Below are positions 1,315-63,035 of a stretch of 64,000 nucleotides of DNA, one piece after another. Source of the DNA: an uncultured Gammaproteobacteria bacterium (GTDB lineage Bacteria; Pseudomonadota; Gammaproteobacteria; JBBQDK01); contig CAVZVG010000005.1 of NCBI GenBank assembly GCA_963778665.1, forward strand, positions 205,805 to 269,804, given 5' to 3'. Position numbers and translations under genes: made by a program. Within the stretch, counting starts at the first letter, position 1. Each line of letters begins with the position of its first letter. Below the pieces are notes generated by a model that was given only the letters and a program-made list of their open reading frames with translations, searched no databases and had not been told where the DNA came from.

Positions 1315-1449
1315 GTAGCCTGGGTTGAGCGACAGCGACAAAACCCGAGGGTTTGTGAAGTTCATAAATGAACTTCACCCGCGGGTGAAGCCATTCGGCT
1401 GTCCAAAATACCTCTGGTGATTTTGTCGCTGCGCTCAACCCAGGCTACA
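1315..1449. repeat. Composite REP/MITE-like palindromic element
   Basis: Outer arms are GTAGCCTGGGTTGAGCG...CGCTCAACCCAGGCTAC; an inner palindrome GTGAAGTTCAT-AAATGAACTTCAC sits between them. It lies in the ubiT/ubiV convergent intergenic space. The same outer arm recurs at ~10.35, 20.65, 20.78 and 63.0 kb, with a diverged arm at 30.95 kb. Confidence 0.7.
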
Positions 1450-1464
1450 TTGCTGAAAGCTGTC

Positions 1465-2361
1465 CTACCTTACCTCACCCTGCCACAGCATGCCGGGCTC
1501 GCCATACCAATAACCGTTGCAGACAGCCGCGTTGAGACAGGCGGCACTGCGCTGTTCCGCCTCGCGCGCCGTCATTGATCCGTCGACCGCGGCGCGGAAC
1601 AGCGCGACGATCTCCTGCATGCCCGACGCCTGCGGTGACAGGCGCAGCACATCGACATTCATTGCCTGCAGTTCGTCCACGGCACCCAGCAGGTTGCAGA
1701 TGCCGCCCGACTGGACCTGAATGCCGTTCAGTGTGAACAGATGCTCGCCCTCGCGGGTATCCATCACCATGCCATCGCTATAATCGGCGCAGCGCAATTG
1801 GCAATCGTCCTTGGGCAGATTGTGCGCGCGCGCCGTGAAACAGCGCGCCGAGAACGCCAGCGGCAACCGGCCGAAGGCGAAGACCTCCGTCTCCAGCCCC
1901 GCCGGTCGCGCCTGTTGCAGTTGCGCGAGTGTGTCGCGCGACAACTCCACCGGCGGCACCCAACGCCGCGCGCCGAGATCGGCAAGCAGTTCGAGCGTCG
2001 CCGCGTTGTAGCTGTTGATGTGCGGACCGGCCACGAACGGCACGCGACCGGCCAGCAGTTGCACGGCACCGATGTCATTGGCCTCGACCCAGAAGCGGCC
2101 GTTATCGACGATGCGCTGCAAGGTCAGCAGCTCGGACTCCGCCTCCAGCAAGGCCAGACTGCTCAATATCACCTGCTTGCCGGCCGCATTCAGTCGTTCG
2201 GCGATCTCCAGCCAATCGGTCAGACGCAGGGCACGGCGCTTGGCACAAACCGTCTCGCCGAGATAGACGCAATCGAGCGGCCAGTCTGTGACGGCCGAAT
2301 AGAAATCGAAGACCGTCTCGCGCGACCAGAAATACAGCAAAGGACCCAGCGAAAGTTTCAT
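1465..2361 (-). CDS. ubiV: U32-family peptidase-like protein UbiV (YhbV homologue)
   Basis: The translation from the ATG (MKLSLGPLLYFW..) aligns with E. coli UbiV (MKYSLGPVLYYW..). Its start overlaps the ubiU stop (ATGA). The ORF track starts 2 codons earlier at a GTG. Confidence 0.8.
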   Translation of the reverse strand: MKLSLGPLLYFWSRETVFDFYSAVTDWPLDCVYLGETVCAKRRALRLTDWLEIAERLNAAGKQVILSSLALLEAESELLTLQRIVDNGRFWVEANDIGAVQLLAGRVPFVAGPHINSYNAATLELLADLGARRWVPPVELSRDTLAQLQQARPAGLETEVFAFGRLPLAFSARCFTARAHNLPKDDCQLRCADYSDGMVMDTREGEHLFTLNGIQVQSGGICNLLGAVDELQAMNVDVLRLSPQASGMQEIVALFRAAVDGSMTAREAEQRSAACLNAAVCNGYWYGEPGMLWQGEVR

Positions 2362-3374
2362 TGCCACGGCCTGTGATACGCACCCAGGGTTGTGGTGCGT
2401 CCTTCAGCGACTTTGTCGAGTTGCATCTGCCAGTCGCGACGTACCGCGAAATGCGTTGGATCGGCCTGACAGGCATCGAGCGCTTCGCGCAGCACTCGCG
2501 TGACCTGTGCGATATACGCCGGACTGCGCTGCCGGCCTTCGACCTTGATCGCGGCGACACCGGCCCGATACAGCTCCGGCAGCATCTCCAGCACATTGAG
2601 ACTGGTGGGTTCTTCCAGCGCATAGAAGGTCTGGCCGCCGACAGCGAAGCGACCCTTGCACAAGGTCGGATAACCGGCGTTTTCATCGGCGGCGTACTGG
2701 TCGATGAGCACGCCGTTGAGACGCGCGCGCCGCCCGAAGCCACCCTCTTCCCAACGCACCGCCTTGGCCGGCGAACAGACGCCACAGGTATTGGGCGATT
2801 CGCCGGTGACGTAGGAAGACAAGGCACAGCGTCCTTCCACCATCACGCAGAGACTGCCGAAACCGAACACCTCCACTTCCGCCGAGGAATTTTCGATGAC
2901 ATGCCGGACCTGCGACAAGGACAGCACGCGCGGCAATACCACGCGCTGTACATTGAAGCGCTCACGGTAGAATGCGATGGCCGGATGATTGGTTGCCGAA
3001 GCCTGCACCGACAGATGCAGGCGCAACTGCGGATGGGTGCGCGCGGCATAGCGCAACAGACCGGGATCCGCCATGATTACAGCATCGATGCCCAGTTGCG
3101 CGGCGCTGTCGACCGCCTGCGTCCAGGTCGCCCAGCGCGCGGGTTGCGGATAGGTATTGATGGCCATGAAGACCTTGCGTCCGGCGGCATGCGCATAGTC
3201 CAGTCCGGCACGCGCCTCCTTGAGATCGAAATTCAGACCGGGAAAATTCCGCGCATTGGTGCCGTCGCGCAGACCGATGTAAACACAGTCCGCGCCATGA
3301 TCGACGGCGGCGCGCAAGGCCGGCAGACTCCCGGCCGGACAGACCAGTTCCATGCGCGCATTCATTGCAGACAT
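2358..3374 (-). CDS. ubiU: U32-family peptidase-like protein UbiU (YhbU homologue)
   Basis: About 338 aa from the internal Met (MNARMELVCPAGSLPAL..), with the conserved Cys pattern (CALSSY...CGVCSP). The ORF track extends to 3452, but that N-terminal extension has no homology. Confidence 0.8.
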   Translation of the reverse strand: MSAMNARMELVCPAGSLPALRAAVDHGADCVYIGLRDGTNARNFPGLNFDLKEARAGLDYAHAAGRKVFMAINTYPQPARWATWTQAVDSAAQLGIDAVIMADPGLLRYAARTHPQLRLHLSVQASATNHPAIAFYRERFNVQRVVLPRVLSLSQVRHVIENSSAEVEVFGFGSLCVMVEGRCALSSYVTGESPNTCGVCSPAKAVRWEEGGFGRRARLNGVLIDQYAADENAGYPTLCKGRFAVGGQTFYALEEPTSLNVLEMLPELYRAGVAAIKVEGRQRSPAYIAQVTRVLREALDACQADPTHFAVRRDWQMQLDKVAEGRTTTLGAYHRPWQ

Positions 3375-3452
3375 GTACAGTGGTCCTGCTGCGCACCCTG
3401 ATAAGTGCCGCGACGCCGCAGCTCCTGTTCGATCCCGTTCAACACACGCCAT

Positions 3453-4298
3453 TTATACCGACACCAGTCCGGTGCCAGCAGCAGCGCCGGCCGATGCGCT
3501 CCCGGTGAGGCGATGAAACACCACCACAGGCGGCGTCATCTCGATGAGATCGGCGGCAACCTGAATGTAGTCGTTGAAGCTCCAGGCGCGATACTCGTCG
3601 CGTCGCCATTCATTGGCGAGCTGCGTGCCCTTCACGACATGCAAGGGATGCAGCTTCAGACCCTCCACACCCAGATTCAGCAGGCGCGCCAGCGTGACGC
3701 GCGCATGCCAGGCCTGTTCGCCCGGCAGTCCGACGATCATGTGCGCGCACACCGGCAGGCCGCGCGCATGGGCGCGGCGCACCGCGTCCTCATACTCGGC
3801 AAAGCCATGACCTCGATTGATACGCGCCAAGGATCTGTCAAAGCTCGATTGCACACCCAGCTCCAGCCAGATCTCGTAACCTTGCGCCCGATACTCCGCC
3901 AGCAGATCCAACACCGCATCCGGGACGCAATCCGGACGCGTGCCGATCGCAAGACCGATCACACCGTCCTGCGCCAGCGCCTCGTCGTACAATTCCCGCA
4001 AGCGCATTGGACTGTCATAGGTGTTGGTATAGGCCTGGAAGTAAGCGAGGAACAATTTTGCCCGGGTACGCTTGGCAATGACGCGCCTGCCGGCGTCGAT
4101 CTGCCGTGCAAGCGGCACCGGTTGCCGGCCGTTGGGACTGAAGGAACTGTTATTGCAGTAGGTGCAACCGCCCCTGCCTTTGCTGCCATCGCGGTTCGGA
4201 CAGGTGAAGCCGACATCGAGCGCCAGCTTGTGTACACGCTCGCCGTAACGGCGCAGCAGATCCTGACCCAGAGTGTTTACCACGGCGGGGAGGTTCAT
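3453..4298 (-). CDS. yhcC: Radical SAM protein, YhcC / TIGR01212 family
   Basis: From MNLPAVVNTLGQDLLRRYGERVHKLALDVGFTCPNRDGSKGRGGCTYCN the protein is collinear with E. coli YhcC (..DLTRRYGQKVHKLTLHGGFSCPNRDGTIGRGGCTFCN..). It sits immediately upstream of ubiU on the same strand, 78 nt gap. Confidence 0.8.
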   Translation of the reverse strand: MNLPAVVNTLGQDLLRRYGERVHKLALDVGFTCPNRDGSKGRGGCTYCNNSSFSPNGRQPVPLARQIDAGRRVIAKRTRAKLFLAYFQAYTNTYDSPMRLRELYDEALAQDGVIGLAIGTRPDCVPDAVLDLLAEYRAQGYEIWLELGVQSSFDRSLARINRGHGFAEYEDAVRRAHARGLPVCAHMIVGLPGEQAWHARVTLARLLNLGVEGLKLHPLHVVKGTQLANEWRRDEYRAWSFNDYIQVAADLIEMTPPVVVFHRLTGSASAGAAAGTGLVSV

Positions 4299-4531
4299 CT
4301 TCGACGGAATCCGACTGTGCCGCGATGCATTACAGGCGTCCGCCAAAACACATCTTTTCCGTAGAAACGCCGAGGACGCGGAGAATATGAATGTTGCTTT
4401 TGATAGCTATGCGCCCTCTGCGGAAGATGCTCATAATCATAGGTGCATACTTGGCCCTGGATTGAGACAAATTCCAATATCAACGAACTCATGAGAAGAT
4501 GGATTTATGCCGTGTCCGTGCGCATGACACA

Positions 4532-4545
4532 TTGATGTGGATCAA
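4532..4545. promoter_or_regulatory. Perfect FNR-consensus box TTGATGTGGATCAA
   Basis: TTGAT-N4-ATCAA palindrome in the yhcC-ubiUV / NMO-family divergent intergenic region, about 70 nt upstream of the likely ATG at 4609. Confidence 0.5.
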
Positions 4546-4608
4546 TCCCATCACACACAGTTGCCGTATCATCTTTCGATTCCAAGAGTGCCCGAGATTC
4601 CGCCCGCA

Positions 4609-5778
4609 ATGATTCATACCTCCCTGCCGCCACTGCTGATCCGTGGACGACGTCTGTTGCCGATCATCCAGGGCGGCATGGGCGTGGGCATCTCCGCGCA
4701 TCAATTGGCAGGCGCCGTCGCCAGGGAAGGTGCCATCGGCACTATCGCCAGCGTCGACCTGCGCCGCCTGCATCCCGATCTGATGGCGCGCACGCGCAGG
4801 ACCTTCGACCACGATGCACTGGCACAGACAAATATAGAGGCATTGGATCGCGAGGTGCGCGCGGCGCGCGAGATCGCCGGCAAGGACGGCTTCCTCGCCG
4901 TGAACGTGATGCGCGCGGTCTCCAACTATGCCGAACTGATCGTGCAGGCCTGCAAGAGCGGCGCGAACGCCATCATCATGGGCGCCGGTCTGCCCATGGA
5001 CCTGCCGGAACTGACGGCCGACTACCCCGATGTCGCACTGATCCCTATTCTGTCCGAAGAGCGCGGCGTACGCGCCGTGTTGAAAAAGTGGTTGCGCAAG
5101 GGTCGCGCGCCGGACGCCATCGTCATCGAACACCCGCGTTACGCCGGCGGCCACCTGGGCGCGACGCGCATCGAGGAAGTCGACGATCCCAAGTTCGATT
5201 TCAAACGCGTGCTGGTGGAAATCCGCGCGGTCCTTGCACAACTCGGTGAGTCGATCGAGAAAATTCCGCTGCTGCCCGCCGGCGGCATCAATTCCTTCGG
5301 CAAGCTGCGCGAACTGTTCGATCTCGGCGCCAGCGGCGCACAGATCGGCACACCGTTCGCGGTCACGACAGAATGCGATGCCCACCCGAACTTCAAAAAG
5401 GTGCTGGCCGACGCCGGACCCGCCGACATCGTCACCTTCATGAGCGCCGCCGGCCTGCCGGCACGCGCCGTGCTGACACCCTGGTTGCAGCGTTACCTCG
5501 CCAAGGAAACGCGCCTGCGCGCCGCGGCCACACCGGGCTGCGGCAACTGCCCGAGCAAACTGGAATGCCTGACACACTGCGGCTTCAAGGACGGCAATCC
5601 CGCCGCCGGTCAATTCTGCATCGAGGCCCAGCTCGCCGCCGCGCAACGCGGCAACATCCACAGCGGCCTGTTCTTCCGCGGCTCCGAATCGCTGCCCTTC
5701 GGCACCGATATCCGCAGCGTGCGCGAACTGCTCGAATTCCTGTTGACCGGCATGAGGCCCGCATCAACCGCGGTCTAG
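4609..5778 (+). CDS. Nitronate monooxygenase / FabK-like NAD(P)H flavin oxidoreductase family protein with a C-terminal Cys cluster
   Basis: PIIQGGMGVGIS FMN-binding motif and a C-terminal CGNCPSKLECLTHCGF. The ORF track starts at 4537, but that would place the FNR box inside the gene, so the Met at 4609 is preferred. Confidence 0.65.
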   Translation: MIHTSLPPLLIRGRRLLPIIQGGMGVGISAHQLAGAVAREGAIGTIASVDLRRLHPDLMARTRRTFDHDALAQTNIEALDREVRAAREIAGKDGFLAVNVMRAVSNYAELIVQACKSGANAIIMGAGLPMDLPELTADYPDVALIPILSEERGVRAVLKKWLRKGRAPDAIVIEHPRYAGGHLGATRIEEVDDPKFDFKRVLVEIRAVLAQLGESIEKIPLLPAGGINSFGKLRELFDLGASGAQIGTPFAVTTECDAHPNFKKVLADAGPADIVTFMSAAGLPARAVLTPWLQRYLAKETRLRAAATPGCGNCPSKLECLTHCGFKDGNPAAGQFCIEAQLAAAQRGNIHSGLFFRGSESLPFGTDIRSVRELLEFLLTGMRPASTAV

Positions 5779-6409
5779 ACACCCTGTTCGGATGTACTGT
5801 TTGGTGGAATCAGAGTCACCGGATCCGATGGCGTATCCGATAGGAAATTGTAACTTCTCTCATTGCCAGACTCCGACCAGCCCGCGACATAAAGCAAGCT
5901 GATCGAGACCATGTGAACGGCAGCTTTTGACTGAAAAGCCGACGCATGGAACGATAGACTTTGACCCACTCCGGTCGTTCAGTCATTCCTTACAATCCCG
6001 GCTGCTAACAGACGTGAAACGGCCCAAATCGAGGCTTACACATTGTACTTCGTGAAATATTACGCGACGCGGATAAGTAAATTATCCAGCGGCGTGTCAG
6101 ATAACCCGACAACCAGGCAGCAACGGTGTTTCTGCAACATATACCCACGGTCCAGTCACTTTCCTGCCCTGCACGTATCCAGTGCTGTCAGTATATTTAA
6201 CATCATCACCACGCATCCATTCTGCTGAAAATTGCCGCGAATAATTCATCACCAAAAAAACAGTGCATTAGATGCCTGCGCCACCTGGCTGGAATGAATC
6301 TTGCCCGTAGTTATAAAAATAAGCGGTCCATGAATCGACGCAGACCGGCGGCCTCCTGAATAGAACTGGGATTGAGCCAACGACAAAGGTTTTTTACGGA
6401 GAACGTCAC

Positions 6410-7061
6410 ATGAAACGATTTCGGTTAACCAGTGCTGTCTGTGCCGCTGTTTTCGGTTTTATCACGTTGCCATCCCATGCCGCATTAGTAGCTCGGGACC
6501 TGGATGGTAACCTGACCACCGCCGAGGCCTATTACGATACTATCGCGGACCTGACTTGGCTGGCGGATGCCAATGCGGCGGGAACGACCATGAACTGGGC
6601 TGATGCCAACGCCTGGGCGGCCAGTCTCGACATCAATGGCGTCACCGGCTGGCGGCTACCCTCCTCGTTAAATTCTGATGGTTCCGGTCCCTGTGGCCCA
6701 TCCTTCTACTGCACCGACAGCGAGATGGGAAACCTGTTCCATAGCGTATTGGGTGGTACAGCGGGTTATTCGATCACCACAACCCATAACAGCAACTATG
6801 ACCTGTTTTCCAACGTCCAGTCCAGACTGGTATTGGTCTGCCATGGAGTACGCGCCCAATCCTCCTCGCGACGCGTGGGTCTTCAACTTCATTGGTGGCG
6901 GCATCCAGAGCGCTAGTATTAAGACCGCTAGCTACTATGCGTGGGCTATACAGTCAGGCGATGTCGGCGCGGCCGTTGTACCGGTACCCGCCGCGTTCTG
7001 GTTGTTCGGCAGTGGTTTGTTGGGGCTGATTGGAGCCTCCTCGCGAAAGCAAGCAGCCTGA
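6410..7061 (+). CDS. DUF1566 (Lcl-like) domain protein with a PEP-CTERM sorting signal, interrupted by an apparent +1 frameshift near 6820
   Basis: Signal peptide MKRFRLTSAVCAAVFGFITLPSHA, then ..GWRLPS.. (frame of 6410) continuing as DWYWSAMEY..AWAIQSGDV plus VPVPAAFWLFGSGLLGLIGASSRKQAA (frame of 6678). The shift falls in a GTCCAGTCCAG direct repeat. GC is lower than the flanks. Confidence 0.55.
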
Positions 7062-7619
7062 TCAAATTCATACATGAACGGCACTTCGGAGCCGTTCTCC
7101 TTTACGCGGGAATGTCGCATTCTGGCCGAACTGTGCCAGTCGTGTTTTTAGGCTGAACGGCCTATTTCGACCCAACCCCGCCGTTCAGGCTGGCGCAATA
7201 ACTCGCCGTCAATTTTCCCGACTCGGTCATTCGAGCTGGGACATGAAACCTCCATCAGGGGCCCTAAGGTTGTATTCTGGACGTGCTATCGAGAAGCTGG
7301 GCACGCAAGAACCGGTAGCTGGTGCCATGGAATGAAATAACAAGCCGATATTAATCCTCAAACAGTCATGCTTCATTTGGAAAATAATTTAGGCTTCGTA
7401 GTGGGAGTTCACGTTGTTGATTTGACTATCGGCAAAAGTGATAGGGAGCTCAATTGATCCGTTTGCAACGGAGCTTTTAAGCCCCCCATCAGTAGTTAGC
7501 TTATATAATTAAGTGTCTTCTAGAAATATGAACTTGACTATTGTGGGCAAGTTTCAGATTGGCCTCTTGTTTATTATGGTAGTGAGAGGGTAACTTTGAA
7601 AGCGATAAACACAATATGG

Positions 7620-8263
7620 ATTTCCACTGCGCCACGTACTGGTTCTATGTCGGCTTTTCAATGTGGCACGAGAAATTCTTCGGACCGTAGGACTTCAAGT
7701 TGAACCTGAGGTTACACTGCAAAGTGATGAGGATATGTTTCGGCAAGCTACTCAGTTTGCATCTGCCTCGCATGATCCAACCAAGGTATGGGTGCTGAAG
7801 GTTCATAAGATCCTTAGGCCGGATCTTCATCGATCGAAAGTGATTACCACGACCGGGATCCGCGCGATGTGCTAGTGTCTTCAAGGAATTTATGAAGACC
7901 AGTTTTGACGAGTCACTCGGTTGCGCCAGATCGGTAGTACACTATACCGAAACTTATAAGGACTATGACCCCAGTTACCTCATGCTAGTAGTTTACAATG
8001 ATATTGAGACGCGCCCGGTAGAATTAATACTGGAGATTGCGGAGTTTCTTGAGGTTCAGGTCAGTGAAATTAATGCCAGGAAAATAGCTCTGAAGTACTC
8101 ACGAGAAAAAGTCAAGAGCCTCATCGAAAAATCCAACAAGTCGCTGGCCAAGAAGCTTGCTAGAGAAAGAAACCAATCGACCACAGCGATATGGTTTACA
8201 TTTCCGATCCTAATTTCCGTGCTTTTGATCGCAAGCAGGCTTTCAAACCGGGAATGTCTATAA
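7620..8263 (+). pseudogene. Decayed sulfotransferase-family gene remnant with multiple frameshifts
   Basis: Motif fragments sit in three frames: KVWVLKVHKILRPDL, RDPRDVLVS at ~7858 (the classic sulfotransferase 3'-PB motif), and a C-terminal YDPSYLMLVVYNDIETRPVELILEIAEFLEV. The region is AT-rich. Confidence 0.5.
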
Positions 8264-8716
8264 ACGAAAAACCGGGGACTGGAAAACGTATTGTCCAAAA
8301 TTGAACAGCAACAATTGAATGATGAATTTGGCAATTGGTTGAAAATGTTTGGTTACCTGGAATAACGCAGCTTAGCAGTGCGTAGTGAGCAGGGGTTGAA
8401 TCGATTTGCAGCTGGACAGGCACTTTGCATTCTCCCCAAAAAAGGCGAATGCCATTTAAACTGTCAGTCGACAGCTCGAGAAGGGCGCATAGCAATCATT
8501 AAAAAAATAGCTCAAGCCGGCGCAAAAACACGCGCGGCTTAGCATTGCTTTACGAATTACCGATTATGGGGTCACGAATGTCAGATAATATCGGTTCACG
8601 ACTGGCAAGTTATGGCCGGATTCGGCCAATGAGAATCCCGATTTGCACAGAGAATCCATGTCCGATATTGAGTGGATTTAGCATAAAGTGACAACGGTCT
8701 CAGGATCTATCAAAGA

Positions 8717-9733
8717 TCAACAAATCCGCGGCAGCGGATCATCTTCCAGTTCTTCGAGGAGACGCTGGCCGCCGAGTTCTGTCTCCAACACCACGTGCGC
8801 GCGACCGGTCTGCAGCGTGCCGATGATGGCTGCCTCCGCGCATGGCGTCAGCGTTTGCAGCGCTGCCAGCGCGGCCGTCGCATGCGCGGCATCGACCACG
8901 GCCAGCACCCGGCCTTCGCAGGCGAGGTACAGCGGGTCGTAGCCGAGCATCTCGCAGACCGAGCGCACCGGATCGCGCACCGGAATCGCGGCGCCGTCGA
9001 GATGCACGCCGAGCTGGGTGGCGCGACAGATTTCATTGGCCACGGTGGCCAGACCGCCACGGGTCGGATCGCGCATGAAGCGCAGGCCAGGCACGGTCAG
9101 CAAGGCCTGCGCGATCGGCAGCACACTGGCGGCATCCGATTGCAGATCACCGCGCAAACCGAACTGCTCGCGCGCCAGCATCACCGCCGTGCCGTGATCG
9201 CCCACCGGTCCGCTGATCAGCAGCCGGTCGCCGGCCTGAATGGTGGACATGCCGAGCCGCACCGACGTGTTGCGTACACCGATGCCGGTGGTGGCGAAGT
9301 AAACACCGCCGCCCTCCCCGCGCCGCAGCACCTTGGTATCGCCCGCGACAATCTGCACTCCGGATTCGCGCGCGGCGCGCGCCATGCTGATCACGATGCG
9401 CTCCAGCAGCGCGACCTCCAGACCTTCCTCGATGAATGCGTTCAAGGTGAGATAGCGCGGGATCGCGCCGGAGACCGCCAGGTCATTCACCGTGCCGTGC
9501 ACCGCCAGACTGCCGATGTCGCCGCCGGGAAACTCCAGCGGCTGCACGGTGAAGCCATCGGTGGTCACGACCATTTCGCCGGCGTCCGCCCAGGGTACCG
9601 TGGCCGCGTCGACGTCGGTCGACAACAGGGGATTGGCCAGATGACGCGCGAACAACTCTTCGATCAGCTCGCGCATGAAGCGTCCGCCGTTGCCATGGGC
9701 CAGTGAGATATGGGTATCCTGCATGTTCGTCAT
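8717..9733 (-). CDS. hypE: [NiFe] hydrogenase maturation protein HypE (carbamoyl dehydratase)
   Basis: MTNMQDTHISLAHGNGG.. N-terminus and C-terminal ..PRIC are HypE hallmarks; about 338 aa. Confidence 0.85.
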   Translation of the reverse strand: MTNMQDTHISLAHGNGGRFMRELIEELFARHLANPLLSTDVDAATVPWADAGEMVVTTDGFTVQPLEFPGGDIGSLAVHGTVNDLAVSGAIPRYLTLNAFIEEGLEVALLERIVISMARAARESGVQIVAGDTKVLRRGEGGGVYFATTGIGVRNTSVRLGMSTIQAGDRLLISGPVGDHGTAVMLAREQFGLRGDLQSDAASVLPIAQALLTVPGLRFMRDPTRGGLATVANEICRATQLGVHLDGAAIPVRDPVRSVCEMLGYDPLYLACEGRVLAVVDAAHATAALAALQTLTPCAEAAIIGTLQTGRAHVVLETELGGQRLLEELEDDPLPRIC

Positions 9734-9925
9734 GAGTCGTCCTGAGTCGATGTCCTGTCGACAGTTTACACGGAATCGCCGCATTCACAGCCCGGTTCAT
9801 CGCTGGTCACGACGGAATTTCCTGATATGATGCGCGGGGCCGGAATTCATGCGGTCTTGCAATCACGGCAGCCGTTAACGGCACGACCGTTTCCGGATAA
9901 CGACGATAATATTTGGAGAATCGCC

Positions 9926-10303
9926 ATGGCGAAAAAGATGCTCATCATGATGACCAGCGGCCCCGATACGCCGACCCGCCTCGCCACACCCTTTCATCAG
10001 GCCATGACCGCCACCGCGCTGGATGCCGAAGAAGTGGTGGTGGTATTCACCATGGAAGGCACCCGGCTGCTGAAAAAAGGCGTGGCCGAGAATGTCTTCG
10101 CCAAGCAGGGTTCCGGTCACAGCGTGCTCGAAGCGATACAGACCTGCAAGGAGTGCGGCATCAAATTCTACGTCTGCCCGTCCTCGCTGGAAATGCACGA
10201 CCTGACGCTCGACGACTGCATTCCGGAACTGGATGGCGGCATGGGTGCCGCCGGCTATGCGGCGATGGGCATGCAGGATGATGTGGTGGTGTTCTGTTAT
10301 TGA
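9926..10303 (+). CDS. DsrE/DsrF-like sulfur-relay / peroxiredoxin-like family protein
   Basis: 125 aa from MAKKMLIMMTSGPDTPTRLATPFHQA..; conserved Cys in ..KECGIKFYVCPSS... RBS GGAGA 7 nt upstream. Divergent from hypE. Confidence 0.6.
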   Translation: MAKKMLIMMTSGPDTPTRLATPFHQAMTATALDAEEVVVVFTMEGTRLLKKGVAENVFAKQGSGHSVLEAIQTCKECGIKFYVCPSSLEMHDLTLDDCIPELDGGMGAAGYAAMGMQDDVVVFCY

Positions 10304-10320
10304 GCACCGAGATGTATAGC

Positions 10321-10404
10321 GCTTACTCAAGCCCTTACTCAAGAATGTAGCCTGGGTTGAGCGCAGTGAAACCCGGGTTTCGCTATCGCTCAACCCAGGC
10401 TACA
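10321..10404. repeat. REP/MITE-like element, family A, full copy
   Basis: CTCAAGCCCTTACTCAAGAATGTAGCCTGGGTTGAGCGCAGTGAAACCCGGGTTTCGCTATCGCTCAACCCAGGCTAC, about 95% identical to 20761-20836. It lies between the convergent dsrE-like and pseudouridine-synthase genes and overlaps the synthase's last codons. Confidence 0.7.
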
Positions 10405-11169
10405 TAGGCCCCGCACCTCATCTGCCGTCAGCTCGCGCGTCTGCCCCTTGGGCAATTCGCCCAGCAGCACCGGTCCGATGGCAACGCGCAGCAGCCGCAA
10501 CACCGGTCTGTCGACGCTCGCCAGCATGCGCCGGATCTGGCGGTTTCTGCCTTCCTCCAGCGTGATCTCCAACCAGCAGTTCTTCGTACCGTGACGCAGC
10601 ATGGTCACGCCGGCCTGGCGGGTGACCACGCCATCCTCCAGGCGCACACCGGCACGCAGTTGTTCGAGCAGAGTTTCATCGGCCTGTCCGCCGATCTGCA
10701 CGTGATAGACCTTGGCGACATGCGTATCGGGATCGAGAATACGCTGCGCCCAGCGCGTATCGTTGGTAAACAGCAGCAGGCCCTCACTGGCCTTGTCCAA
10801 ACGTCCGACCGGCGCGAGCCACTGATCCTGCACATCCGTCAGACACTCGTAGACGGTGCCGCGTCCCTGTTCATCGCGCGCGGTCGTCACCAGTCCGCGC
10901 GGTTTGTTGAGCACCAGATAGCGTTTCCGCACGGCAGCGACCGACTGGCCGTCGACAGCGATCTTATCGTTCGACATGTCGACACGCTGATCGGGATTGC
11001 GCACCGACACACCATTCACGGCAACCCGCCCCGCCACGATCCAGGTCGCGGCGACCGTACGCGAAGCCAGGCCCGTCTTGGAAAGCGCCCTGGCCAGACT
11101 CACGGCAGCCTCACGCCGCGGCGCGACCGCCTGCCTGTTACTGCGTTCCGATGTGATTTTGCGCGACAT
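10390..11169 (-). CDS. Pseudouridine synthase, RsuA/RluB/RluE family, with an N-terminal S4 domain
   Basis: 259 aa. S4 domain LASRTVAATWIVAGRVAVNG. Catalytic region ..YLVLNKPRGLVTT..GRLDKASEGLLLFTND.. with the Asp in RLD. Confidence 0.8.
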   Translation of the reverse strand: MSRKITSERSNRQAVAPRREAAVSLARALSKTGLASRTVAATWIVAGRVAVNGVSVRNPDQRVDMSNDKIAVDGQSVAAVRKRYLVLNKPRGLVTTARDEQGRGTVYECLTDVQDQWLAPVGRLDKASEGLLLFTNDTRWAQRILDPDTHVAKVYHVQIGGQADETLLEQLRAGVRLEDGVVTRQAGVTMLRHGTKNCWLEITLEEGRNRQIRRMLASVDRPVLRLLRVAIGPVLLGELPKGQTRELTADEVRGLCSLG

Positions 11170-11215
11170 GCGGCAACCCCGGGTAGACTCGGACAGCGGC
11201 GAAGACCGGCTTCAG

Positions 11216-11242
11216 AAAAAAAAGGCGCGCCGAAGCGCGCCT
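11216..11242 (-). terminator. Rho-independent terminator on the minus strand (AAGGCGCGC-TTCG-GCGCGCCTT then T8)
   Basis: GC hairpin followed by a U-run when read on the minus strand, downstream of the degraded gene at 11.3-13.6 kb. Confidence 0.5.
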
Positions 11243-11279
11243 TGGTGGAGCTATGTTAAAAATTACTGAATGACACCAT

Positions 11280-13563
11280 GGATGACCTTAGGTGCATCGG
11301 TGACAGTGGGTTGATGCCGAGGTAATCGACATCGGTAGAGTCGCTCGGGTCGTGCAGATCGGCAGCGGAAGGCAGCGTGAGCGTGTGATGGGTTGCGAAG
11401 GCTCGTCGTAGCGCGCATGCCACCTTGCCAAACGCAGTTCCTGATCAAGCGCCTTGACGATGAGCGGTGTGCTGGTGCCCGGCAAGCTCATGGTGGCGCC
11501 GTCGGGGATGGAGAACTCGGGCACATAGCGCGCACCGGGGATGCCGCAATCCGCTGGGACTGTTGTCTGTCGGATCCACGCAATAGCCCCCGGATGCCGT
11601 TCAGATTACCGAAGCCGTTGAACTGCAGCTGGATGGTCTTGCCCGCCCAGCTGCCGTAAGCCGCGCCCGCTGGGCACGGTGTAAGCAACGGTTCTCCGGC
11701 GGATCGAACTGCACCACGCTGCTGTCGCTGGTCTTGGTCAACCACAAGGACTGGTTCCACTGGTTGGGACCGGTTTGCCAGGTATAGTAGACAGTAGGAT
11801 TGCCGGGTTCACATACGGCTCCCGCCATTGGGGCAACCAGTGGTCGGAAGTGCCGTATCGAACAGTCTGCCGCTCATTGGATCACCATTCTGATACATGG
11901 CCGGTGAACAGTGCCGGTATCAGTGACATACCGCTAAGGCAGTACTGTTTTGCTTTAGACCACCGCTGTCGAAGCTGTATGTCACCGAAACGGTGCCTGA
12001 ATTCCACTGGGTCGCGGGGTCGCAGTGGTTATCGCTATTGATTACCGAATGGTGAGTTGCTGCCAGTGAAAGCCGTCAAGCGATGAAGCGGTGGGGCAAT
12101 TACTCAAGCAATACAGTGCCGTGGGAGCATTGGCATGTCCGGGAATAACGTCCGACTGAGTATAAGTAATTAGACAGCGTCAGTACCGGCATGCGCCGAT
12201 CCGGTGGGCGGAATATTGATGTTACCGCCAAAGGAATCGGACCAGCCGGAAATCGGCGAATAGTCGAATGCCACCGCTATTCACGGTCGCCACCGGGCTG
12301 ATCGACGTTCAGCACACAGACCATTGTTCCCGCAGGTTTGGGTGCCAATAACAACGAACTGGCTATGGCTGGTGGTTGTCCCATTGCATCTGCCAGTTAC
12401 CTGAAACCTGTCACGACGGAATCACTGGTCTTACCAGTGAGGTCACCCCAGAAGGAAAAGGGGATACCGTCCATTGCAGCAAGCGTCTGTTGAGTTCTGC
12501 GTCCACTTGGTCAGCTTGCCGCTGCTCTTAGAGAGGGTATAGGTGCTGGTATTACCGGGACGCTGATCGGTAATGGCCACGCCGGACAAGGGCCGTCGGC
12601 AAAGCTATTCAGATCCAGCCCCTGGAAATTGACGCCCCAATAACTGGCATAACCGCAATAGGTACTGCCGTTGTAGCTAGCCTGAACCGGAAAGCCGGGA
12701 TGGGCCTGATCCACGCGGGTGCCGTCGTTGGCATTGTAGATGCCGTAACGCCATACCGATTTCGAGGCAGCGGCCTTGGAGCGGTCGAAGCAGACATCGT
12801 TGGTGCCGTCGTTACGTCGAAACACACCGGCGGGGAAACTCGCCTCGCTGGAGTCATAGGCGAAGTTGAACGTCTGCGACCGGAGGTTCATGGTGTTTTG
12901 ATCCAGCGTATTCATGATCCCCGAAGCGGCGCTGGTGGAAGTCGCCGTCATGGCGAGCGAATTTTGGCTCGAATTAGCACCGGTCTCCAGATAGCTGACA
13001 TCCGCCCCGTTGGCGTCTATGAAGCCGTTGAACATGGTGGTCGGTGAACACCGGAGGATCTTGCCGATGTAGTCCAAACGAAACTGGCCGTAGGGAGGCG
13101 CATCGGTCGGCGACTGGATCGCGGTGGCATGAACATAGATATCGATTGGGTTGCCCCTCCTCCGTCATGGACATCCATATCTTGCCGATCATGGGATCGC
13201 TATTACTGGCGCGCGTCGACATCCACCACCGCGTTCATATAATCGGGAGCGGCGGTGGCGCCGGAGGAACCGCCGAGTGGAATTGCTGCGCACTCGATTG
13301 GCTCTTGCTGTCGCACTTGTTCTTGTCGACGAGGGCGATGTAGGCACCTTTGTTAACCATATCCGCCGGCTTCATGGCATCCATGATGCACAGCACCATA
13401 TTGAGGCTGGAAATGCCGTCCGACGTGGCGTCCTGCACATAAGAATTCTGGGGATCACGACATAAGGCGAATCGGAGGGCAATACCGCCCAAGTGGTGAG
13501 CGGCGTGGCACCGATCATCGCCAGAAAAAGTACCGACATGAGTTTCAGTGACTTTGAGTTCAT
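11280..13563 (-). pseudogene. Heavily degraded gene for a large secreted protein; ancestral function unknown
   Basis: A signal peptide MNSKSLKLMSVLFLAMIGATPLTTWA at ~13563 is followed by 2.3 kb with no frame open for more than 190 codons. Protein-like segments (..YNGSTYCGYASYWGVNFQGLDLNSF..) sit in at least four frames. GC is intermediate. Confidence 0.45.
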
Positions 13564-14080
13564 GGCTGAATCCTGATTAGTTAGCGGTGACACAGAAACC
13601 GAAGCCGTTGTAGACACTCGCGGCTATCTCGTCGCATTGCCACTCGAGCTGGGCACCGCCACCACCGCCACCACAGGCGGTGAGCGCAAGCAAGACAAGC
13701 AACAGACACTGTTACTTTCAGAAATTTCATGACTGACCTCCATATAGCCAGCGGAGAAAGCCCGGGGCGATTGAAGTCGAGTAAACGAATCTCGAGAGAG
13801 AGAGGGGCGGTCGTGACGTGTATGCGCGTTCGGACCAGATCCTGCTCGTCCCGCTGTTAGCGGCAAAACATTGTCCTCACTTTAGGACCGCGAAAGAGAG
13901 AGGCGCATCGGACCTGGCATATCTGTGATCAATTCCTCAGCAAAAGCCTGCAACTACAGACCAGAATCACTGCATCTCAACCGTCCAGACACAGCCGGTA
14001 ATGACCACAGAGGGTGTTATGGCCGAGACCAGATCTAAACAGAGGACGAGTACGAATGGCCGACAGTCAGGAGCCAGCAC

Positions 14081-14205
14081 ATGAGCGCCGCAATGCGCTA
14101 TTCCATGCAATTATCGCTGGGCGGCGAAGGCGCCTGGGTACGCGGCGAGGAAGCCATCATGGGCACACAGCATCTGGGTCGAGCTGTGGGCGGAGGATCT
14201 GCAGT
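14081..14205 (+). pseudogene. Duplicated 5' fragment of apbE (about 42 codons, 1-nt indel); gene remnant
   Basis: ATGAGCGCCGCAATGCGCTATTCCATGCAATTATCGCTGGGCGGCGAAGGCGCCTGGGTACGCGGCGAGGAAGCCATCATGGGCAC.. is about 85% identical to apbE nt 19655-19775. It has its own AGGAG RBS, and the similarity ends at ~14205. Confidence 0.6.
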
Positions 14206-14285
14206 GTGTGGCGGTTGACAGGAAACGGAATCAGCGACACGCCTGATGTTTATTCAGCGGGCGTGTGCGATACACGACAAATACA

Positions 14286-14756
14286 TCACTGAGCTGCATC
14301 ATGTTCAGGGCTATCACCCGACGGATGGCCCCTCTCATCTCCTTCTTTATCACCACCCTTATACCCAGGGTTGTCTTTTCCGGAATTGCCCCTGAACTGC
14401 GGCCTGTCTTTGCTGGAATCACCGCCCATGTGGTCGATATCGCTTCTCGACCCATGACCATACCCGGAGCCGAATACCGTGCTCTCGAGGGTTTTGCTGC
14501 CGCCGCCATACATTGACGGGCCTTGATGGCCTCGCTCGCTGATGATGTAGCTTTCGCTGCCCCGGTCATGCGCCCCTTTCCTGCCGTGCTCGCCTGCGCC
14601 ATGGCCGCCGCCAATCTCGTCACGACTGCCGTTCTCCGCGTACGCCGGCATGATCAGATTGAAACCGTCCGGGTGATTCGCTACAGCGGACTCCAGCAGG
14701 GCATAAATTCCGACAGCGAAGGGTGTAGTAATAAGTACTTTCAGATATCTCGACAT
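14286..14756 (-). CDS. Secreted His/Gly-rich low-complexity protein; possible periplasmic metal-binding protein
   Basis: 156 aa from MSRYLKVLITTPFAVGIYALLESAVA (signal peptide) with GGGAGA RBS. The mature part has GHG/HG/GYGHG motifs (..GGGHGAGEHGRKGAHDRGSE..GYGHGSRSDIDHMGGD..). Confidence 0.5.
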   Translation of the reverse strand: MSRYLKVLITTPFAVGIYALLESAVANHPDGFNLIMPAYAENGSRDEIGGGHGAGEHGRKGAHDRGSESYIISERGHQGPSMYGGGSKTLESTVFGSGYGHGSRSDIDHMGGDSSKDRPQFRGNSGKDNPGYKGGDKEGDERGHPSGDSPEHDAAQ

Positions 14757-15003
14757 GACATTTCTCCCTGTCCTATCAAGATAAAAATATAGACCATGGC
14801 ACCGTAAATTGTTGATGAACTGTACAGCCACTTTTTTCAACAGCTTGTCGAATGACACGCAAAGTAACGGTACAAGTATCTGAGGAAGCGCCAGATATGC
14901 CGGCCGGTCCCGCCCAACGAAGATACAGCAAAGCACCGATCGCGACCTGACTGGATTCCCGTTTTCGAGGGCACGACTCGTTCAGAGGATAGTTACCGCA
15001 ATA

Positions 15004-15036
15004 AAAAAGGGCGCGCTTGCTGCAAGCGCGCCCTTC
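15004..15036 (-). terminator. Rho-independent terminator on the minus strand (GGGCGCGCTTGCAGCAAGCGCGCCC then T6)
   Basis: Perfect GC stem followed by a U-run when read on the minus strand, 20 nt after the stop of the 15056-16186 gene. Confidence 0.55.
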
Positions 15037-15055
15037 CCGGCCCAACGATCAACGC

Positions 15056-16186: not shown

Positions 16187-16358
16187 GACACTCACCTCAT
16201 TCTTCAATTACATGATTCTTGCGTTGCAAGAATAATATCTTTTTGTACTTGAACATTTGTTGACGAGCATCAAGCACAATGCCTTTTCACACTTGCAAGC
16301 AGGCAAATAAAGCACTCTCGTGTGGCGCGAGAGGACTGTTACCATCCATGATTCGAAA

Positions 16359-19032: not shown

Positions 19033-19654
19033 AACATCTCTCCTCACCTGAAACGCAGGCACAAAAAAGCCCGGACCGGGACGAATCCTGTGTCCGGGCG
19101 AATCTCACTTTGCTTTCACTAGCGTTTCAACTAGGAAAACGACTTATTATAACCAAACTTCACACAGCGAACGTGACCGCCCCCGCAGGTCGGACGTGAC
19201 CGACCACTCAACTCAAGAGATGCGTTTTGAACGTAAAAATGCACTTCGATGAATAATAAACATCATATCAATGTTCTATTGAACAATGAAGACCTGGACT
19301 AAAATCCTGAGTGACACTGACAAAAAAGTTCTGTCGATGATGATAAATGCCAGACTGCCAAAGTTGAATTTGACATCAGCTGCAACACACAAACATCTGA
19401 CCTCATCAGGCAATGCGAAGTGTTTTTTTCGCTGGCAAACCGGCCGGGGGCACACCGGACATGAACCATGAGTCGACTATACCCTGCAAATGCACTGTGA
19501 CCTGATTCGCAGTCCACTCGCGTATACCCGACTAGAATCATCCACAATAACCGAATCCGTCCGGCTGCCGTCGGGAATGCTGCGAGAGGCGCCATGAACG
19601 GGAATGGAGTTGCACAATGCAGTACCCATACAGCAAAAAACCGGGGGTCGCCTT

Positions 19655-20621: not shown

Positions 20622-20715
20622 CCTGGATTGATTGTCGGCCGCAGAGGCAGCAGTGAAACCCGGGTTTCGCTATCGCTCAACCCAGGCTACGTCCTGGATT
20701 GATTGTCGGCCGCAG
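20622..20715. repeat. Half-copy of REP family A (48 bp) flanked by a perfect 23-bp direct repeat CCTGGATTGATTGTCGGCCGCAG
   Basis: Direct repeat at 20622-20644 and 20693-20715 brackets CAGTGAAACCCGGGTTTCGCTATCGCTCAACCCAGGCTAC, 8 nt after the apbE stop. Confidence 0.6.
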
Positions 20716-20760
20716 GGTAAGTTCATTTTATCAATCGCACAAAATAGAATGGCACTGACT

Positions 20761-58802: not shown

Positions 58803-58803
58803 C

Positions 58804-61192: not shown

Positions 61193-61229
61193 CACCTTCT
61201 GCCCAAGACCCCCATAAAGGAAGCCGAAC

Positions 61230-62990
61230 ATGAGCGCACAAACCGTCGTCGTCGATCCCATCACCCGCATCGAGGGCCATCTGCGCATCGAGGCCGAAAC
61301 CGATGACAGTGGCACCATCACCCACGCCTCCAGCGCCGGCACCATGGTGCGCGGCATCGAATTGATCCTGCGCGGCCGCGACCCGCGCGATGCCTGGGCA
61401 TTCGCGCAGCGTATCTGCGGCGTCTGCACGCTGGTGCACGGTCTCGCCTCGGTGCGTTCCGTCGAGGACGCGTTGAAATACGAGATCCCGCCCAACGCGC
61501 AGCTGATCCGCAATCTCATGATCGGCGCGCAATACATCCACGACCATGTGATGCATTTCTATCACCTGCATGCGCTGGATTGGGTGGACGTGGTCTCGGC
61601 GCTGAAGGCCGATCCCAAGGCGACCTCGGACCTCGCGCAATCGATCAGCAATTACCCGAAGTCCTCGCCCGGCTATTTCGCCGACATGCGCAAGAAGCTC
61701 CAGAACTTCGTCGAGGCCGGCCAGCTCGGTATTTTCGCCAACGGCTACTGGGGTCATCCCGCCTACAAGCTGCCGCCGGAAGCGAATCTGATGGCGGTCG
61801 CGCATTACCTCGAGGCACTGGCCTGGCAGCGTGATGTCGCGCAGTTGCACACCATCTTCGGCGGCAAGAACCCGCATCCGAATTTCCTGGTCGGCGGTTC
61901 ACCGGCCGCGATCAGCGTTCATCCCGGTAACGTGGGCCAGAACAATGGCGGTGGCGCGGGCGCCACCGCGGTCAACATGGTCGGCCTGCAGAGAGTCAAG
62001 GAGATCATCGGGCAGATGAGTGATTTCGTCGATCAGGTGTATGTACCGGATACGCTCGCCATCGCCGGCTTCTACAAAGACTGGGCCACGCAGGGCGAAG
62101 GCATCGGCAACTTCATGACCTACGGCGATCTGCCGTCGAAAAGCATGGCCGATCCGTCCAGTTTCCTGATCCCGCGCGGTGTGATTCTCGATCGCGATCT
62201 GTCCACCATCCATCCGATCGATCTCAACGCCGACGACGAAATCCAGGAATATGTCGCGCACTCCTGGTACGACTACAGCGTCGGCAAGGACAAAGGCCTG
62301 CACCCCTACAAGGGCGAAACCAACCTGAACTACACCGGTCCGAAGCCGCCGTACGAGCATCTGGAAACCGACAAGAGCTACTCGTGGCTGAAATCGCCAC
62401 GCTGGAAAGGCAAGGCCGTCGAAGTCGGACCGCTGGCGCGCGTGCTGATGCTGTACGCCACAGGCCATGAACAGACCAAGGAACTGGTGAACATGACACT
62501 CAGCAAACTCGACGTGCCTGTGCAGGCGTTGTACTCCACGCTCGGCCGTACCGCCGCGCGCACGCTCGAAACCAAGATCATGGCCGATGCCATGATGGGC
62601 TGGTACACCGATCTCATGACCAACATCAAGGCCGGCGATCTCAAGACCCACAACGAGAAACTCTGGGATCCGTCCACCTGGCCCAAGACCGCCAAGGGCG
62701 TCGGCTACATGGAAGCCCCGCGTGGCGCGCTGGCGCACTGGATCGTCATCAAGGATGCAAAGATCGACAACTACCAGGCTGTCGTGCCCAGCACCTGGAA
62801 CGCCGGCCCGCGCGACCCCATGGGGCAGGACGGACCCTACGAAGCCGCGTTGAAGGGCACCAAACTGTATGACGCCAAACAACCTATCGAGATCCTGCGC
62901 ACCATCCACAGCTTCGATCCCTGCATCGCCTGCGCGGTGCACGTGACCGACCCGGAGGGCGAGGAACTGGTCAAGGTGAAGGTCAGATAA
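61230..62990 (+). CDS. hynL: [NiFe] hydrogenase large subunit
   Basis: N-terminal RICGVCTLVH and C-terminal DPCIACAVH Ni-Fe ligand motifs; 586 aa. Confidence 0.9.
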   Translation: MSAQTVVVDPITRIEGHLRIEAETDDSGTITHASSAGTMVRGIELILRGRDPRDAWAFAQRICGVCTLVHGLASVRSVEDALKYEIPPNAQLIRNLMIGAQYIHDHVMHFYHLHALDWVDVVSALKADPKATSDLAQSISNYPKSSPGYFADMRKKLQNFVEAGQLGIFANGYWGHPAYKLPPEANLMAVAHYLEALAWQRDVAQLHTIFGGKNPHPNFLVGGSPAAISVHPGNVGQNNGGGAGATAVNMVGLQRVKEIIGQMSDFVDQVYVPDTLAIAGFYKDWATQGEGIGNFMTYGDLPSKSMADPSSFLIPRGVILDRDLSTIHPIDLNADDEIQEYVAHSWYDYSVGKDKGLHPYKGETNLNYTGPKPPYEHLETDKSYSWLKSPRWKGKAVEVGPLARVLMLYATGHEQTKELVNMTLSKLDVPVQALYSTLGRTAARTLETKIMADAMMGWYTDLMTNIKAGDLKTHNEKLWDPSTWPKTAKGVGYMEAPRGALAHWIVIKDAKIDNYQAVVPSTWNAGPRDPMGQDGPYEAALKGTKLYDAKQPIEILRTIHSFDPCIACAVHVTDPEGEELVKVKVR

Positions 62991-62995
62991 TCAAT

Positions 62996-63035
62996 GTAGC
63001 CTGGGTTGAGCGATAGCGAAACCCGGGTATTGCTG
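62996..63035. repeat. Partial REP family A copy (GTAGCCTGGGTTGAGCGATAGCGAAACCCGGGT..)
   Basis: Lies 6 nt after the hynL stop. The left arm plus loop are conserved; the right arm is diverged. Confidence 0.55.

Follow-up and report, generated by a model that had tools for sequence, protein, structure and literature searches.

We analyzed the short palindromic repeats in a 64,000-nucleotide stretch of an uncultured Gammaproteobacteria bacterium (GenBank assembly GCA_963778665.1, contig CAVZVG010000005.1, forward-strand positions 205,805 to 269,804; hereafter the window, with coordinates counted from its first letter), and found that they probably constitute one family of GTAG-type repetitive extragenic palindromic (REP) elements, occurring singly and as REPIN-like inverted doublets (REPIN, REP doublet forming a hairpin), which would be moved by a REP-associated tyrosine transposase (RAYT) with its gene in another part of the genome. 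We assign these repeats to the GTAG REPs and their REPtrons because their features coincide with the hallmarks published in the passages of PMC3733652 that we draw on. The kind of element is thus known already, and what is added here is one more family of it, together with a modest twist: some doublets are nested in a miniature inverted-repeat transposable element (MITE) with IS4-like ends, an arrangement documented mainly outside the window. Overall, the repeats are a real but ordinary genomic feature.

Anatomy of the repeat unit

Searching the window for the 17-mer GTAGCCTGGGTTGAGCG with up to 3 mismatches returned 9 matches, compared with 0.16 ± 0.42 expected from 100 dinucleotide-preserving shuffles of the window, none of which reached 9. 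These matches start at 1315 (+), 1448 (−), 10347 (+), 10403 (−), 20690 (−), 20780 (+, 1 mismatch), 20836 (−), 30946 (+, 3 mismatches) and 62996 (+), and bear out all six sites at which an initial annotation, made from the letters of the window, had reported a REP- or MITE-like palindrome family. Its statement that the arms are inverted complements likewise survived a recount, with pairing at 17/17 positions between 1315–1331 and 1432–1448 and between 10347–10363 and 10387–10403, and at 16/17 positions between 20780–20796 and 20820–20836. In total, the window contains two tight doublets, one 134-bp wide doublet and three single or truncated units, which amounts to 9 REP arms at 6 intergenic sites in 64 kb, one element extending into the final 14 nt of a coding sequence.

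The 17-nt arms that were taken as the repeat do exist, but the repeated unit itself is a 31–32-nt REP—consisting of GTAG, an 8-nt 5′ stem (CCTGGGTT), a loop region of 11–12 nt with the motif GAGCG(C/AT/AC)AG(C/T)GA, and a 3′ stem (AACCCGGG). GTAG opens all arms (9/9), and the stem begins directly after it in every intact unit (7/7). In single-stranded DNA (ssDNA), the REP folds into an 8-bp stem and a 2-bp GC/GC mini-stem, with tandem G-A/A-G mismatches between the two and a loop of 3–4 nt at the tip. Like other GTAG-type REPs, it is a short imperfect hairpin whose pairing has been kept in evolution. A scan of the whole window for GTAG followed by an 8-bp stem gave 8 hits (1.7 expected), 7 of which are the intact units and 1 of which is unrelated, and uncovered no copies beyond the known sites; the two degenerate arms of the 134-bp element are additional to these 7 intact hairpins.

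The tight palindromes, each 57 bp long, are two inverted REPs with their GTAG tags outermost and an overlap of 6 bp at a central CCCGGG. The ssDNA folding energy is −26.4 kcal/mol (z −9.6) for the doublet at 10347–10403, −21.5 kcal/mol (z −7.7) for that at 20780–20836, and −7.5 to −9.1 kcal/mol (z about −3.3) for single REP units; as RNA the doublets reach about −47 kcal/mol and the single units about −20 kcal/mol. Most copies of the family are head-to-head doublets, which resemble REPINs in that two inverted REPs pair into a single long hairpin and turn up together at loci that have nothing else in common. The tight doublets lack the spacer, typically of tens of nucleotides, between the REPs of a REPIN. 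The single units at 20650–20690 and 62996–63035 are doublets minus one outer arm; described earlier as "half" and "partial" copies, they do comprise about 40 nt of a doublet with one outer 17-mer missing, yet each retains a complete hairpin.

RAYT genes flanked by the same REP

The association with a transposase is seen in other genomes, from which, together with metagenomes, we fetched a set of 186 loci (referred to below by L-numbers). L107 encodes a RAYT of 176 aa (4826–5353; NF047646 REP_Tyr_transpos, E 2e-59; Escherichia coli TnpA-REP 4ER8, E 1.4e-50) that is bracketed by a plus-strand REP from 4748 and a minus-strand REP from 5403 (5370–5403), and whose HUH motif and catalytic tyrosine motif both align with those of 4ER8. 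Immediately upstream of this gene, L107 has a second RAYT gene, which is flanked on both sides by another GTAG palindrome. RAYT genes with copies of the window's REP close by are also found in L079 (Pseudomonas cuatrocienegasensis), L093 and L035, at distances of up to about 150 nt, and in L076 and L096, at distances of up to a few hundred nt; all of these RAYT-bearing stretches had been fetched solely for their REP content. In L156, a RAYT homolog (416–954) is split by a tight doublet at 603–659, with the two halves in different reading frames, an arrangement in which the repeat seems to have knocked out one copy of the very transposase presumed to move it.

Taken together, the GTAG tag, the imperfect hairpin, the intergenic location, the coexistence of singles and inverted doublets, and the flanking of RAYT genes elsewhere support the proposal that this is a REP-type family. 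Of the cognate RAYT and the target-site duplications that the initial annotation had raised, the former is found beside the same REP in other genomes, but the window itself contains neither.

Distribution of the family and conservation of its stem

In a genome scan that took one genome per species, and whose counts are lower bounds, the exact 17-mer occurred at least 120 times in at least 108 genome stretches. Carriers among the matches listed include Pseudomonas, Phytopseudomonas and Stutzerimonas, Xanthobacteraceae and other Alphaproteobacteria, as well as Casimicrobiaceae, Noviherbaspirillum, Gallionellaceae and many unclassified gammaproteobacterial metagenome-assembled genomes (MAGs), so that among these matches an identical 17-mer is shared by alpha-, beta- and gammaproteobacterial genomes; nearly all of the stretches continue from the 17-mer into the same loop motif and then a 3′ stem that can pair with the first. 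In metagenomes, tight doublets occur in 74 contigs with unrelated flanks, and 343 REP arms were counted overall. Spaced doublets (16–20 nt) also exist, namely in L083, L094, L125 and L132.

Picking units by GTAG and the loop motif alone yielded 260 units, 65 of them with a 5′ stem other than CCTGGGTT. Pairing between the 5′ and 3′ 8-mers of these 65 units extends to 7.25 of 8 positions, compared with 6.53 ± 0.06 when partners are shuffled; the observed value was reached in 0 of 500 shuffles. Changes on both sides of the stem are found as CCCGGATT/AATCCGGG, CCCGGGAT/ATCCCGGG and GTTGGGGT/ACCCCAAC elsewhere, and as GTTGGGCT/AGCCCAAC in the window. Conservation ends at GTAG, with positions flanking the REPs at 0.4 bit or less. 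The arm variant GAGCGACAGCGACAAAA was not found in any fetched locus.

Extended units and a MITE with IS4-like ends

Both tight doublets of the window carry a left extension, and the two extended copies, which had been noted as about 95% identical over a shared unit of about 80 bp, are 94% identical over 88 nt (10316–10403 vs. 20749–20836). The 31-nt extension is about 87% identical between the two copies and matches GAATGGCACTTACTTAAG(CG), at 16/18 positions at 20747–20764 and more weakly at 10314–10331; searching the window for this terminal repeat returned a single match with 2 mismatches, at the 20747 site, against 0.01 expected. The first extension (10314–10346, +) is made up of GTATAGCGCTTACTCAAG, a diverged MITE-type terminal repeat that agrees at 14/18 positions with the L011 version GAATGGCGCTTACTTGAG, followed by a 12-bp internal duplication (CTTACTCAAGCC / CTTACTCAAG) and the linker AAT. 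The second (20747–20779, +) starts with the terminal repeat GAATGGCACTGACTCAAG (16/18 to GAATGGCACTTACTTAAG) and continues with the duplicated CCCTTACCCAAG and the same linker, AAT.

In related MAGs and metagenomes, the same sequence serves as the terminal inverted repeat of 110–123-bp elements that enclose the doublet (L181 1375–1485, L011 1581–1690, L033 2737–2858, L046 3389–3499, L128, and also L160). Two terminal repeats of 18–20 bp are present in L181, L011, L033, L046 and L128, and 11-bp direct repeats flank all complete elements (7/7), with agreement at 11/11 positions in L181 and L128, 10/11 in L033 and at least 8/11 in the others. The order of terminal repeat, linker and doublet seen in the window recurs in L011, L046, L141 and L166. 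The terminal repeat GAATGGCACTTACTTAAGCG agrees at 14/20 positions with TAATGCCAGTCAGTTAAGCA, the end of IS4 in E. coli K-12. IS4 makes duplications of 11–13 bp, and its K-12 copy has one of 12 bp. Because of this similarity of the ends and the length of the duplications, the scaffold is probably a MITE derived from an IS4-family element, as judged from sequence comparison. A tblastn search with E. coli InsG gave no match to an IS4-type transposase in the window or in the 186 loci.

Another insertion sequence was considered as the parent of this MITE and rejected. The only transposase that turned up beside a composite is encoded in L128, by an IS5-family element (946–2119, 1174 bp; NF033581, E 1e-107) inserted in the left terminal repeat of a 123-bp MITE (nested elements at 929–2240) that carries the REP doublet and is flanked by the 11-bp duplication GGCTCAGCCCC. 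This element has its own ends (GGAACCTCTGA... and ...CAGAGGTTCC) and its own 4-bp TTAA duplication, which together with its position inside the MITE rule it out as the MITE's parent.

The window copies differ from these complete elements. Each has one terminal repeat (10314–10331 and 20747–20764) and no second one, the flanks of the two units hold no matching target-site duplication, no autonomous partner was found, and the other end of both units falls exactly at the REP's GGCTAC. Among the 74 metagenome doublets most are bare, and one-ended forms like those of the window are common; about 36 terminal-repeat-like matches were found among the 343 REP arms. We read the window's two 88-bp units as one-ended remnants or derivatives of the MITE-doublet composite, which may have arisen by deletion or by an event at the REP boundary. 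The label "MITE-like" thus turns out to be partly right, though in a way not anticipated, in that the extension is a MITE terminal repeat.

The same terminal repeats also enclose other cargo—in L160 (3934–4120 and 7510–7642), L138 (1069), L168 (2081) and L175 (50)—which comprises further GTAG REP families (GTAGGGTGG... and GTAGGATGGG...) and a CCACGGAAT-type palindrome. Since these terminal repeats carry unrelated cargo, the MITE scaffold and the REP are separable; and since one scaffold carries several REP families, the palindromic centre of the MITE could, on the two-way spread considered below as doubtful, be a preferred landing site for RAYT-mobilized hairpins.

Presence and absence in related lineages

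We compared the insertion sites with four relatives, namely L109 (97.7% identical over 2.5 kb), L111 (a gammaproteobacterial MAG, about 86%), and L110 and L147 (both about 83%). The doublet at 10.3 kb is present in the strain contig L109 and absent in L110, where the orthologous spacer is 17 bp long. In L111, the spacer orthologous to window positions 10303–10390 (L111 8340–8406) holds a different GTAG palindrome (GTAGGGTGCGCTTGCGCAC...), so that a single spacer can house members of different REP families from one related lineage to the next. The spacer between the apbE-like and DUF3570 genes measures 14 bp in L111, with flanks 86% identical, compared with 229 bp in the window, and is empty of the element, while the ubiT/ubiV spacer in L110 (flanks about 83–86% identical) measures about 60 bp and is without the 134-bp element. 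The unit between hupL and hupE, by contrast with these, is present in L147 (83% identity over 935 nt), with the same truncation point and the other loop variant.

With three orthologous spacers either empty or differently filled, these alignments indicate that gains or losses of the family occurred at some sites after the 83–86% lineages had split, and, given the shared site and truncation point in L147, that it is old at hupL/hupE. The recent mobility that had been suggested from the two near-identical copies cannot be argued from the high identity of their REP part, since alpha-, beta- and gammaproteobacterial genomes share one unchanged 17-mer; the extension, for its part, is only about 87% identical between the copies.

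The comparison with L109 additionally showed that this contig (1–170) skips from about window position 11214 to 14257–14308; the intervening stretch of about 3 kb (11215–14256) has a lower G+C content (0.557) and is absent or rearranged in L109.

Genomic sites of the individual copies

Four of the elements lie between convergent genes and two between co-directional genes, and the nearest stop codons are 6–83 nt away. The placement just downstream of stop codons therefore holds in general, but the doublet at 10347–10403 supplies the stop codon of its neighbour. Labels of flanking genes given below rest on the Pfam labels of orthologs.

The first site is occupied by the 134-bp wide head-to-head doublet (1315–1448, no strand assigned), which lies between the convergent ubiT-like (SCP2; 699–1232, +) and ubiV-like (U32 peptidase; 1465–2367, −) genes. 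Its 29-nt outer arms (1315–1343 and 1420–1448) correspond to GTAGCCTGGGTTGAGCG(A)CAGCGACAAAA and are one indel apart, and its 76-nt interior holds a perfect 11+2+11 palindrome (1355–1378) that is found once in the window. The whole element folds at −51.1 kcal/mol as ssDNA (z −12.4) and had no match in a plasmid collection. Directly upstream of its first arm, at 1290–1316, are three short tandem units containing CGTAG or CGTAA (cgtagaacgtaaaacgtagtaaaacgtagcc), which add GTAG motifs at 1291 and 1305.

The first tight doublet (10347–10403) consists of a plus-strand REP at 10347–10377 and a minus-strand REP at 10403–10372, reaches −47.1 kcal/mol as RNA, and sits between a dsrE-like gene (9827–10303, +) and an rluB-like pseudouridine-synthase gene (10390–11169, −). 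The final four residues of the latter's protein (CSLG) and its TGA stop codon are encoded by the right arm of the doublet, and despite this REP-derived end the protein is equal in length to its orthologs.

Two copies share the interval between the convergent apbE-like (19604–20614, +) and DUF3570 (20843–22042, −) genes. The second tight doublet (20780–20836, no strand assigned) has one arm mismatch, G to A at 20794, and ends 7 nt short of the stop of the DUF3570 gene. The half copy that precedes it (20650–20690, −) matches the right-hand 41 nt of a tight doublet, lacks the left outer 17-mer and forms an ssDNA hairpin of −7.9 kcal/mol. Because positions 20650–20693 match 20796–20839 at 44/44 positions, including 3 nt (GTC) outside the REP, it is probably a local copy of the adjacent doublet. 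It is flanked on both sides by a perfect 23-bp direct repeat, CCTGGATTGATTGTCGGCCGCAG (20622–20644 and 20693–20715), with 2 exact copies in the window against 0 expected and none in the 186 fetched loci; this repeat likely arose by local duplication. The left copy of the 23-bp repeat faintly resembles a decayed REP 5′ arm (AGCCTGGATTGATTG vs. AGCCTGGGTTGAGCG).

The single REP at 30946–30977 (+) belongs to a sister subfamily, GTAG-GTTGGGCT-GAGCGCAGCGA-AGCCCAAC, in which GTAG and the loop are kept and three stem pairs differ, on both sides, from CCTGGGTT/AACCCGGG. This copy has an ssDNA folding energy of −9.1 kcal/mol (z −3.2) and a similar counterpart in the flank of L136, and begins 18 nt past the stop at 30928, between two co-directional plus-strand neighbours. 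Upstream of this site, the overlapping open reading frames 28374–29975 and 29828–30928 carry positions 12–90 and 111–150 of the Laminin_G_3 profile, a split that hints at a frameshift in the gene, or at an error in the sequence, around 29830–29975. The last copy (62996–63035, +) is a truncated doublet, with a hairpin at 62996–63027 followed by the remnant of a second arm; its RNA folds at −20.5 kcal/mol, and it begins 6 nt past the stop of the [NiFe]-hydrogenase large-subunit gene (61230–62990, +), upstream of the co-directional hupE (63063–63653, +).

Proposed mechanism and alternative explanations

TnpA-REP of E. coli requires both GTAG and the mismatched stem for binding and cleavage, and cuts at a CT located 5′ or 3′ of the REP (PMC8266576). 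By analogy with this system, a RAYT (TnpA-REP, an HUH/Y1 enzyme) encoded elsewhere in the genome would bind the folded single-stranded REP, reading the GTAG tag together with the mismatched stem, would cut at a nearby CT or CA dinucleotide, and would then rejoin the strands, such that REPs could spread or rearrange in intergenic DNA without target-site duplications. Copies would persist at gene 3′ ends, where they would be harmless. Together with the RAYT association described above, the E. coli analogy makes such RAYT-mediated spread of single-stranded hairpins the best account of the element's biology.

Several observations weigh against this account. Within the 64-kb window, no RAYT was detected by the regular expression Y..NPV[RK]xG or by tblastn with three RAYTs. 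Taken singly, the arms of the 134-bp element fold into no REP hairpin (z −1.2 and 0.0), with a weak partial stem in the left arm and none in the right. The REPs of the tight doublets overlap by 6 bp, unlike those of the usual, spaced REPIN. Finally, an IS200/IS605-type enzyme would not be expected to produce the 23-bp direct repeat or the one-ended MITE repeats, and other processes, such as local duplication, deletion or DDE-type transposition, have had a part in shaping these loci.

The most substantial competing explanation is that the doublets are cargo of an IS4-ended, DDE-type MITE that is spread by an IS4-family transposase, with the REP core being simply the MITE's central palindrome. 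The complete 110–123-bp elements with 11-bp duplications in L181, L128, L033, L011, L046 and L160 are what this explanation predicts, as are the IS4-like terminal repeat, the length of the duplication within the IS4 range, and the terminal repeat on each tight doublet of the window. However, most of the 74 doublets have no terminal repeat nearby and nor do nearly all single units, the window copies are one-ended and without target duplication, the terminal repeats also enclose unrelated cargo (L160, L138, L168, L175), the same REP flanks RAYT genes, and the search for an IS4-type transposase in the window and in every fetched locus came back empty; we consider the explanation distinctly unlikely. 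An intermediate possibility, also doubtful in our estimation though somewhat less so, is that REP doublets spread in two ways, by RAYT or as the central cargo of the IS4-ended MITE with its 11-bp duplications, and that the window units are hybrid products. The 88-bp units run from the MITE terminal repeat exactly to the GTAG of the REP, and on this hybrid origin they would result from, for example, RAYT cleavage at the composite's REP boundary instead of random deletion.

That the hairpins are instead host regulatory elements (terminators, stabilizers, or sites for gyrase or integration host factor) selected at gene 3′ ends, with function accounting for their repetition, is very improbable as a full explanation. 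It would fit the location of every copy within 83 nt of a stop codon and of none in a divergent promoter region, the strength of the RNA hairpins (−47 kcal/mol for doublets and about −20 kcal/mol for singles), the retention of the hupL/hupE unit at the same site in an 83%-identical relative, and reports that E. coli REPs affect mRNA stability and termination (passages of PMC3733652; PMC8266576). Yet three sites are empty in close relatives with the same flanking genes, so the elements are dispensable there, their orientation relative to the upstream gene varies, and such a function is compatible with mobility and would at best add a layer to RAYT-mediated spread. The initial annotation's proposal that the copies act as terminators is not supported: the hairpins are followed by ATAGGCC, GTCATCC, ATTCTTG, TATTGCT and AACCGTG, none of which is a T/U tract, and no terminator-like call in positions 1–20000 falls on a REP copy. 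On these two results we reject the reading of the copies as intrinsic terminators and regard a classical terminator role as unlikely. A role as stabilizer or attenuator of mRNA 3′ ends is plausible by analogy with E. coli REPs, in that transcribed hairpins could shield the upstream mRNA from 3′ exonucleases or attenuate read-through; the hupL–hupE unit, being conserved in the 83%-identical relative, is the best candidate for it.

Least probable of all, to the point where we give it almost no weight, is that the elements are sites of another recombination system, such as integron attC sites or targets of a site-specific recombinase, or else genes for structured small RNAs. The arms do hold GTTGAGC and GCTCAAC, which fit the core consensus sequences GTTRRRY and RYYYAAC. 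An attC site, however, is an imperfect palindrome with R″ (RYYYAAC) at its 5′ and R′ (GTTRRRY) at its 3′ side, found in cassette arrays beside intI, whereas here the core order is inverted, with GTTRRRY preceding RYYYAAC on both strands, single units are common, and there is neither an integrase nor a cassette array. Core order and the RAYT association together effectively rule out attC sites. Against small RNA genes stand the lack of any Rfam family at the gathering threshold in the window and the finding of no tRNA or tmRNA gene.

Other repeats in the window

A second palindromic family, built on CCCTCTCCC...GGGAGAGGG and unrelated to the REPs, was represented by perfectly complementary 22-nt arms at 22760–22781 and 38574–38595, and by a local 30-nt inverted pair at 32644/32714 (32644–32743); the flanks of L125 and L178 contain similar motifs. 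Between 14081–14204 and 19655–19777, two stretches (86 and 33 nt) are 91–92% identical; they cover the 5′ part of the apbE-like gene, of which a paralogous copy lies 5.6 kb upstream, and L111 matches this upstream apbE-like copy at 88%. A 59-nt inverted repeat pair (5890–5948 and 43181–43239), 78% complementary and 37 kb apart, is likewise unrelated to the REPs.

Implications

In annotating this genome, the palindromes are best masked or entered as REP/REPIN elements rather than as genes, small RNAs or terminators. Through one of them, a pseudouridine-synthase gene has acquired its present final four codons and stop. Since REP sites vary between close relatives, they can serve as strain markers and are a likely cause of assembly breaks. 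A family that shares an identical 17-mer among alpha-, beta- and gammaproteobacteria and lies beside homologs of the E. coli-type TnpA-REP would also offer a convenient additional system for studying hairpin recognition by RAYTs. The nesting of REP doublets in an IS4-ended MITE, if general, would mean that two unrelated transposition systems cooperate in spreading one element.

Comparison with known systems

Likeness to the IS4 family is confined to the composites in related metagenomes and the remnants in the window, and consists in the similarity of the ends and in 11-bp duplications that fall in the 11–13-bp range; unlike IS4-family elements, the composites have no transposase partner that we could find, and the window copies carry no second repeat or duplication.

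The resemblance to the GTAG superfamily (Di Nocera et al. 2013, PMC3733652) is broader. The passages of that work on which we rely describe GTAG REP families with a GTAG tail, stems of 5–13 bp and loops of 2–20 nt, a predominance of head-to-head dimers, some intragenic or overlapping copies, and families shared by distant taxa, all as in the present family. They also describe dimers nested in longer palindromes, regularly so in Anabaena variabilis and Halothiobacillus neapolitanus, whereas the enclosing palindrome here is a MITE with 18–20-bp IS4-like repeats and 11-bp duplications, which the same passages do not state for theirs. In the parts of the text and supplements of PMC3733652 that were available, the exact consensus of the window's REP was not found.

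The REPINs of Pseudomonas fluorescens SBW25 (PMC3116915, PMC3337134), from which the REPIN concept comes (PMC3116915), differ in having a spacer of tens of nucleotides, while the common form here is without one. As in the present family, they join two inverted REPs into a single long hairpin that is repeated as a whole, their singles are decayed doublets (here 62996–63035 and 20650–20690), and their distribution among relatives is patchy.

Compared with the REPs, bacterial interspersed mosaic elements (BIMEs) and TnpA-REP of E. coli (4ER8; PMC3479197, PMC8266576), the present family has other stem and loop sequences, with tandem G-A/A-G mismatches in place of the AA/GC bulge, and many of its doublets are fused with a 6-bp overlap, where E. 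coli has BIME linker motifs. The two systems nevertheless share their basic architecture: GTAG lies directly 5′ of a mismatched hairpin, the elements are extragenic at gene 3′ ends and form inverted pairs, and the RAYT gene is itself flanked by inverted REPs, as exemplified here by L107.

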